Positions 5,682 to 6,378 of a stretch of DNA of 64,000 nucleotides are shown piece by piece. Location: NCBI RefSeq assembly GCF_044647545.1, contig NZ_CP172818.1; one strand, given 5' to 3'. Below the pieces are notes generated by a model, which worked only from the letters and a program-made list of their open reading frames with translations, ran no database searches and was not told where the DNA came from. How positions within the stretch are numbered: position 1 is the stretch's first letter; every line of letters starts with the position of its first letter. Source of the DNA: Escherichia coli. Its GTDB lineage: Bacteria; Pseudomonadota; Gammaproteobacteria; Enterobacterales; Enterobacteriaceae. The position numbers were made by a program, and so were the translations under genes.

Positions 5682-6082
5682 GATTTTCATAAGGCGGATA
5701 GTGATACAGATGCCGCTATCCGCTTTCACATCAGAACGTATACTCGATACCTGCTTTACGGGGTGAAAAAAATCAATATAGCACTTCGATATCCGATAAA
5801 GTCGGTTCCCGGTAACAACAACAGAATCCTTTTTTAATTATTGTTTCGTTGTTTTTGGTGTGATTCAGAAAATAAATATTTTAGACAGTAGCCAGTCAGG
5901 CGTTAAAAATGGGGCGGATAGTGAGGCGGTTTTGGCTGCGCTTATTGAACATTTTCAGAATTGATCAGAATCCTTCTGTAGATTCGTAGCCAAAATACCC
6001 GTTCGGCAATGCTTCAGTTACGCGAAGAGGAATGGGTCTGAATTCTTTTTTTGGTTGTCAACTTTGGTAGTGTCTGGATTAT

Positions 6083-6286
6083 GTGATTATTAATTTAACT
6101 CCAGAAAGCAAAAAACGTCGACGAAGTGAACACCAGACATTCAGGAAGCAATTGATGCTTTATATAGCCAACGTCTGGGGCGTAAAGTCGCTGGGTGATG
6201 AGGTGAGACACTTACCCGTAAATGACGCTAATTCGCAAAATCCACGCACTCCAAACATTTGCGCAATACTTCCCGCCAGGACTTGA
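6083..6286 (+). CDS. Hypothetical small ORF (67 aa) in the ymgE-treA intergenic region; possibly a remnant of a longer gene
   Basis: Only an ORF-track hit; no recognisable domain, no clear RBS assessed. Kept as low-confidence. Confidence 0.2.
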   Translation: MIINLTPESKKRRRSEHQTFRKQLMLYIANVWGVKSLGDEVRHLPVNDANSQNPRTPNICAILPART

Positions 6287-6327
6287 AAAACCGTCGTGAG
6301 AAAAAACCATAGCTATGGTGTTATCCG

Positions 6328-6366
6328 CCGACAACGCCATCCGGAGAAGCCGAATGACGTTGTCGG
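6328..6366 (-). terminator. Inverted repeat (9-bp arms CCGACAACG / CGTTGTCGG) just downstream of the treA stop; candidate terminator or REP-like element
   Basis: Arms read directly in sequence; no clear U-tract, so function uncertain. Confidence 0.35.
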
Positions 6367-6378
6367 AGTAAGCGCTGG

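Follow-up and report, generated by a model that had tools for sequence, protein, structure and literature searches.

Introduction

In Escherichia coli K-12 MG1655, ycgY (b1196) is a plus-strand gene for a 146-aa product annotated as 'uncharacterized protein YcgY'. The protein has no known domain, and its function is known from screens only, in which overexpression of the K-12 gene (ASKA) raised the MIC of nalidixic acid more than 12-fold and the MICs of tetracycline and trimethoprim 3-fold (PMC12924614). No other functional data on YcgY were found in the literature beyond overexpression screens, and searches of K-12 YcgY against Pfam and NCBIfam gave chance-level matches only.

The distribution of the gene is narrow. 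Relatives of YcgY among 5.8 billion protein clusters were confined to E. coli and Shigella, and the 12 low-identity matches that were inspected, out of 38, were truncated, fused or frameshifted forms of the ordinary allele; the truncated forms include one labelled Shigella flexneri. In the GTDB species representatives, a protein-pattern scan returned zero relatives, with the weakness that one of its six patterns assumed an ATG start and ycgY uses GTG, and a 20-mer conserved between K-12 and the window analysed here (a stretch of 64,000 nucleotides of E. coli DNA) was absent as well. In many natural E. coli an IS1 lies within ycgY, which is a recurrent IS1 target, and in natural alleles the non-synonymous and synonymous changes are about equal in number. 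The IS1 insertions and the truncated alleles are consistent with ycgY being dispensable, and we regard it as a lineage-restricted, dispensable orphan gene. A larger loss was seen in strain JMF1, where two IS1 copies stand in place of the stretch from ycgY to ycgV and both treA and the dha operon are gone.

Two forms of the locus occur in E. coli. A query spanning ymgE to treA was matched over at least 80% of its length by 3,145 of 5,426 complete genomes, while most of the others have in common only the first 73 bp past ymgE and then continue into a 6.7-kb island. The island encodes a TonB-dependent receptor, ModD, a SAM methyltransferase, an ABC ATPase, a FecCD permease and a substrate-binding protein. 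Its carriers include FDAARGOS_497, UID2309220009 and O157. The name 'fit' was considered for the island and dropped, as its gene order and content are unlike the fitABCDE/fitR of Ouyang and Isaacson (PMC2593036).

Results

The gap between ymgE and treA in the window extends from 5682 to 6378 (697 bp). The genes around it and the open reading frames within it are as follows.

4492-5226, minus strand, ycgR
5428 (ATG) to 5681, plus strand, ymgE, within the listed ORF 5394..5681
5860..5964, plus strand, third gap ORF, 34 aa
6083..6286, plus strand, longest gap ORF, GTG start, 67 aa
6212..6340, minus strand, second gap ORF, 42 aa
6379..8079, minus strand, treA, its end at 6379 facing the gap
8396-9820, minus strand, dhaM

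The original prediction had described about 700 bp of apparently non-coding sequence between ymgE and treA, with only a weak 67-codon ORF (6083-6286), and the ORF list agrees. It had also placed a small gene, ycgY, at this position in reference strains, and K-12 MG1655 indeed has ycgY annotated between ymgE and treA. The gap aligned over its full length with the K-12 ymgE-ycgY-treA interval at 92% nucleotide identity across the whole spacer. The ycgY-type DNA lies between the same two genes, on the strand of ymgE, and its homology to K-12 ycgY is gene-wide. The following features could be placed in the gap.

5691..5726, plus strand, hairpin directly 3′ of the ymgE stop, 13-bp stem, -18.5 kcal/mol, z = -3.76 against shuffles
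5731..5754, minus strand, TonB-dependent receptor relic of 24 nt, the last 7 codons (AGIEYTF) and the stop
5755..6377, plus strand, K-12-type ycgY segment of 623 bp, in place of the 6.7-kb island of the closest relatives
5860 (GTG) onward, plus strand, ycgY start and codons 1-31
5955..6300, plus strand, damaged ycgY core
6299..6371, minus strand, structures downstream of treA, -36.3 kcal/mol, z = -4.47
6331-6371, minus strand, long treA-side hairpin, the first after treA
6299-6325, minus strand, short CCATAGCTATGG hairpin with a U-run (UUUUUU), after the long treA-side hairpin

The window copy and K-12 ycgY have the same place, orientation and GTG start, the same 105 bp upstream and the same downstream terminator region, and their first 31 codons are identical (VIQKINILDSSQSGVKNGADSEAVLAALIEH). 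A 2-bp insertion at 5955 then shifts the frame, and after three shifted codons a premature TGA at 5962-5964 closes the 34-aa ORF. The core from 5955 to 6300 differs from K-12 by 59 events in 346 bp, namely about 48 substitutions and 11 indels of 1, 1, 1, 1, 2, 2, 2, 2, 2, 4 and 4 bp, the last two sizes including one deletion and one insertion; none of the indels is a multiple of 3. The rest of the ycgY segment has 2 events in 277 bp, one in the 200 bp before the core and one in the 78 bp after it, and the clustering of events in the core relative to the rest of the segment was strong (Fisher p = 4e-14). Identity to K-12 is about 99% on either side of the core and 86.7% within it. Peptides of YcgY can be recognized, spread across all three frames: SQNTRSAMLQLREEEW, SEFFFW, CLDYVIINLTPESKK, AIDALYSQR, ETLTR and QTFAQYFPPGLEKPS. 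In the ORF listing and the translations of the gap, no frame contained an intact 146-codon ycgY.

The suggestion that ycgY may be truncated or diverged here held up: the frame closes after 34 codons, the indels number 11 and are all non-triplet, and YcgY peptides lie in three frames. Two outcomes named beforehand as speaking against it were not seen: an intact homologue is absent from the other frames, and ycgY is present in the reference. We are nearly certain that the gap holds a disrupted copy of ycgY, whatever the cause of the damage. This copy can make no YcgY protein; it is a remnant, or pseudogene, and not a gene. The 67-codon ORF at 6083..6286 is not a gene either. It opens with residues of the genuine YcgY frame (IINLTPESKK, SEH) and goes on to read the C-terminal half in the wrong frame. 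The window ORFs gave chance-level matches only in Pfam and NCBIfam, an exact look-up of these ORFs, including the exact 67-aa sequence, found none of them among 15 billion proteins, and a homology search with the 67-aa ORF found no homologues. Four promoter-like sites were seen in the gap where 1.9 +/- 1.4 were expected, so that an enrichment is not clear; one of them, a weak site with 9 of 12 matches, ends at 6082.

Both ends of the gap contain strong secondary structures. The hairpin directly after ymgE is followed only by UUU (TTT in DNA), does not differ in sequence between K-12-type and island-type strains, and from its predicted fold is likely to be the ymgE terminator. On the opposite strand, the two treA-side structures are likely, on the same kind of prediction, to form the treA terminator; 6301-6378 has one difference from K-12. 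Neither hairpin was reported by a scan with a strict terminator pattern. A covariance-model search found zero Rfam families in the gap at E <= 1, and the single match in a scan of 5000-7000 was at chance level and lay inside ycgR, outside the gap. The predicted convergent terminators of ymgE and treA are likely to be the only functional elements of the gap beyond the broken ycgY.

The 24 nt between the ymgE hairpin and the ycgY segment connect the two forms of the locus. Read on the minus strand, they match the island receptor over its last 7 codons, and further upstream the window runs into a stop. Homology to island strains in the window stops at 5754, and K-12-type strains hold the identical 24-nt relic adjoining ymgE. 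An aromatic residue at the C-terminus is the standard ending of an outer-membrane protein, so the 24 nt have their origin in the coding sequence of a receptor. Since the relic is kept in K-12-type strains, we infer that the ycgY-type arrangement derives from the island-bearing one. The island allele has the same insertion point as the ycgY segment of the window. Island strains and the window also agree over the 73 bp that follow ymgE, which include the last 24 nt of the receptor gene, and again from the stop codon of treA on. The six island genes are all missing from the window, where the 24-nt 3′ relic of the receptor is all that is found. A blastn comparison of the ycgY segment with the island at word size 7 found nothing alike beyond the junction sequences.

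The window copy was compared with natural variation at the locus. All five natural ycgY alleles that were aligned keep the 146-codon ORF without indels, whereas the window copy does not. Naturally disrupted alleles carry a single event, one IS or one frameshift, and are otherwise 99-100% identical, in contrast to the roughly 59 clustered private events in the window. Wherever the two aligned natural haplotypes differ from each other, the ycgY segment has the K-12 (phylogroup-A-like) state. The changes in the core occur in none of the 5,426 complete E. coli genomes, among which the best natural identity for 5940-6300 was 87%. The JGI metagenomes contained neither of two window-specific 24-mers. 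Not every E. coli lineage is represented in these collections. Sequences of the window allele that can serve as search strings are TTTCAGAATTGATCAGAATCCTTC and GTGAACACCAGACATTCAGGAAGC.

The DNA around the gap belongs to a different background. On either side of the gap (2000-5681 and 6379-9900), the sequence is that of FDAARGOS_497, of a strain named ST648 and of others, at 100% identity. In these flank-identical strains the gap between ymgE and treA measures 6.8 kb and has the 6.7-kb island at the exact ycgY site and not ycgY. Over about 58 kb of common DNA, 7 mismatches and 10 gap columns separate the window from FDAARGOS_497, and the majority lie at or next to structural-variant junctions. 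At four places the window is instead collinear with K-12.

887-972, K-12-collinear, where FDAARGOS_497 has an LRR gene
5755-6377, K-12-collinear, where FDAARGOS_497 has the 6.7-kb island
13679-17292, K-12-collinear, where FDAARGOS_497 has a 40-kb island
53963-54914, K-12-collinear, where FDAARGOS_497 has an intact IS4
about 13784-16651, minus strand, ycgV in the 13679-17292 segment, K-12-like, with private clusters at 14280-14960

At the ycgY segment, relative-like sequence gives way to K-12-like sequence no more than 6 bp from the left homology boundary (5749 against 5755) and no more than 16 bp from the right one (6378 against 6394). In the third of these places, positions 15001-17290 (ycgV) match K-12 exactly; six of six sampled exact matches to this stretch were K-12 laboratory derivatives, and each sampled natural isolate had at least one mismatch. 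Further along the same gene, 14280-14960 contains clustered private substitutions together with frameshifting indels of 1-4 bp, and the best natural identity for 14240-14420 was 90.5%. What was seen at ycgY is thus repeated at ycgV, and it is also found at three further structural-variant sites of the window. The private changes in the K-12-like segments have a transition/transversion ratio of about 1.1 and one indel column for every two substitutions, compared to 2.0 and one indel column per about 150 substitutions for the core of the window against K-12. At the private substitution rate of 1.9% in the K-12-like segments, an unchanged stretch of 2,290 bp in ycgV has a probability of 1e-19, and finding at most 7 changes at the neutral sites of the 58-kb core has a probability of 1e-107.

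Several other sites in the window were unusual. The 86-bp K-12-like stretch at 887-972 is homologous to the 'IS1414 partial' region of K-12 and replaces a 1.9-kb stretch of FDAARGOS_497 with the gene for an LRR protein; mismatches lie nearby at 984 and 988. For the junction at 800-1060, the best identity among complete E. coli genomes was 95.8%. The stretch at 53963-54914 is a K-12-like ISZ (insZ) remnant that differs from K-12 by 16 substitutions and 4 indel columns. In the ldr/rdl repeat region, a 208-bp insertion at 30236-30443 contains 7% G (C 77, T 66, A 50, G 15). It is absent at this site from FDAARGOS_497 and K-12 and had no blastn match in the 5,426 E. coli genomes; it resembles a repeat unit at only 74% identity with many gaps and looks like junk sequence. 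At 59018 the K-12 IS5U is missing, and the join lacks 4 bp (AGTG) found at the natural empty site of FDAARGOS_497, so that it is an imprecise 'excision' unlike any natural empty site. Relative to FDAARGOS_497 there are also deletions at 39715 (1 bp), 46946 (2 bp) and 47064 (1 bp), which fall in the narK-narG spacer and beside two tRNA-Tyr genes, where K-12 differs structurally.

Discussion

The damage in this copy of ycgY most likely stems from a K-12-templated fill with a low-quality consensus and not from natural decay; the artefact step is one that we infer, and we hold it to be probable. The reading is based on K-12-like DNA being present in the window exactly where close relatives have different or extra DNA. 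According to this explanation, the source isolate would be of the FDAARGOS_497/ST648 type, to which the window is essentially identical wherever the DNA is common to both. At structural-variant sites, a reference-guided or reference-polished assembly would have supplied sequence like that of a K-12 laboratory strain, and this fill would carry private, indel-rich, non-biological noise at levels between 0% and over 13%. Between ymgE and treA, the most likely content of the real isolate would then be the 6.7-kb receptor/ABC island, and ycgY would be absent.

Several points stand against such an artefact. No simple pipeline model accounts for about 350 bp at 13% noise beside 200 bp of perfect K-12 sequence, all without true coverage. 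The 4-bp deletion and the 4-bp insertion in the core look, superficially, like natural non-coding divergence. Finally, the K-12 IS5U is missing from the window, although a naive reference-fill would keep it.

A genuine pseudogene would be the natural alternative. A strain of the FDAARGOS_497/ST648 type would have exchanged the island for a phylogroup-A ycgY by recombination, and the gene would have decayed afterwards. As given, the sequence reads as a clean multi-frameshift pseudogene, and decay would fit a gene that is dispensable, as judged from the IS1 insertions and truncated forms such as that of Shigella flexneri, and in which natural alleles have nearly equal numbers of non-synonymous and synonymous changes. 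Decay should be even, however, and 59 events in 346 bp beside 2 in the adjacent 277 bp are not. The equally K-12-like ycgV has zero changes in 2,290 bp, the core of the window is nearly without private change, and the changes are shared with no relative. The exchange would also need crossovers very close to the heterology, at most 6 bp away on the left and 16 bp on the right. Natural recombination is disfavoured by the position of both crossovers at the heterology boundaries, which is where read mapping that stops at heterology would place them. We therefore consider a genuine pseudogene unlikely.

Less probable again is that a short patch was recombined into a K-12-type ycgY from an unsampled homologue diverged by about 13%, for example from a cryptic Escherichia lineage. 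Identical flanks around a diverged core form the mosaic expected of short-patch recombination, and the multi-base indels resemble differences between species. Against this, a diverged ycgY is absent from the data searched, with the family found in E. coli and Shigella only among the 5.8 billion protein clusters and with neither a YcgY relative nor the conserved 20-mer in the GTDB species representatives. Similar private clusters occur in ycgV and in the ISZ remnant, and within the patch the K-12-specific states are kept at informative sites.

In its wider form, the idea that the burst at 5955-6300 is real, as a local mutational shower or a patch from unsampled Escherichia on a K-12-type ycgY in an FDAARGOS_497/ST648 background, with ycgV and the other variable loci affected likewise, seems to us just as improbable. 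Two further candidates were rejected. A diversity-generating (adenine-directed) mechanism does not fit, given the many indels and the absence of a base bias. A conjugational hybrid between K-12 and a clinical strain could account for the mosaic but would leave the private noise and the 208-bp G-poor insert unexplained. It is scarcely credible that ycgY was replaced by a genuine small gene in the form of the 67-codon ORF (6083-6286): this ORF is the longest of the gap and the weak promoter-like site (9/12) ends directly before it at 6082, but it is a GTG-initiated, out-of-frame reading of ycgY DNA without a family match, homologue or exact copy (Pfam, NCBIfam, 15 billion proteins), and promoter-like sites are not clearly enriched (4 against 1.9 +/- 1.4).

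Under the preferred explanation of a K-12-templated fill, the window appears to be chimeric, with the core sequence of the group of strains that includes one named ST648 and noisy K-12-like DNA at structural-variant sites. Calls of pseudogenes, diverged alleles or novel inserts at 887-972, 5755-6377, 13679-17292, 30236-30443, 53963-54914 and 59018 should be distrusted. For the biology of E. coli, the weight of the broken copy is small, as it is a known dispensable orphan gene that is broken at its usual position. The receptor relic next to ymgE implies an older island-bearing state of the locus, and the DNA that replaced the island carries ycgY, a gene restricted to E. coli and Shigella; this offers a small clue to the origin of ycgY.
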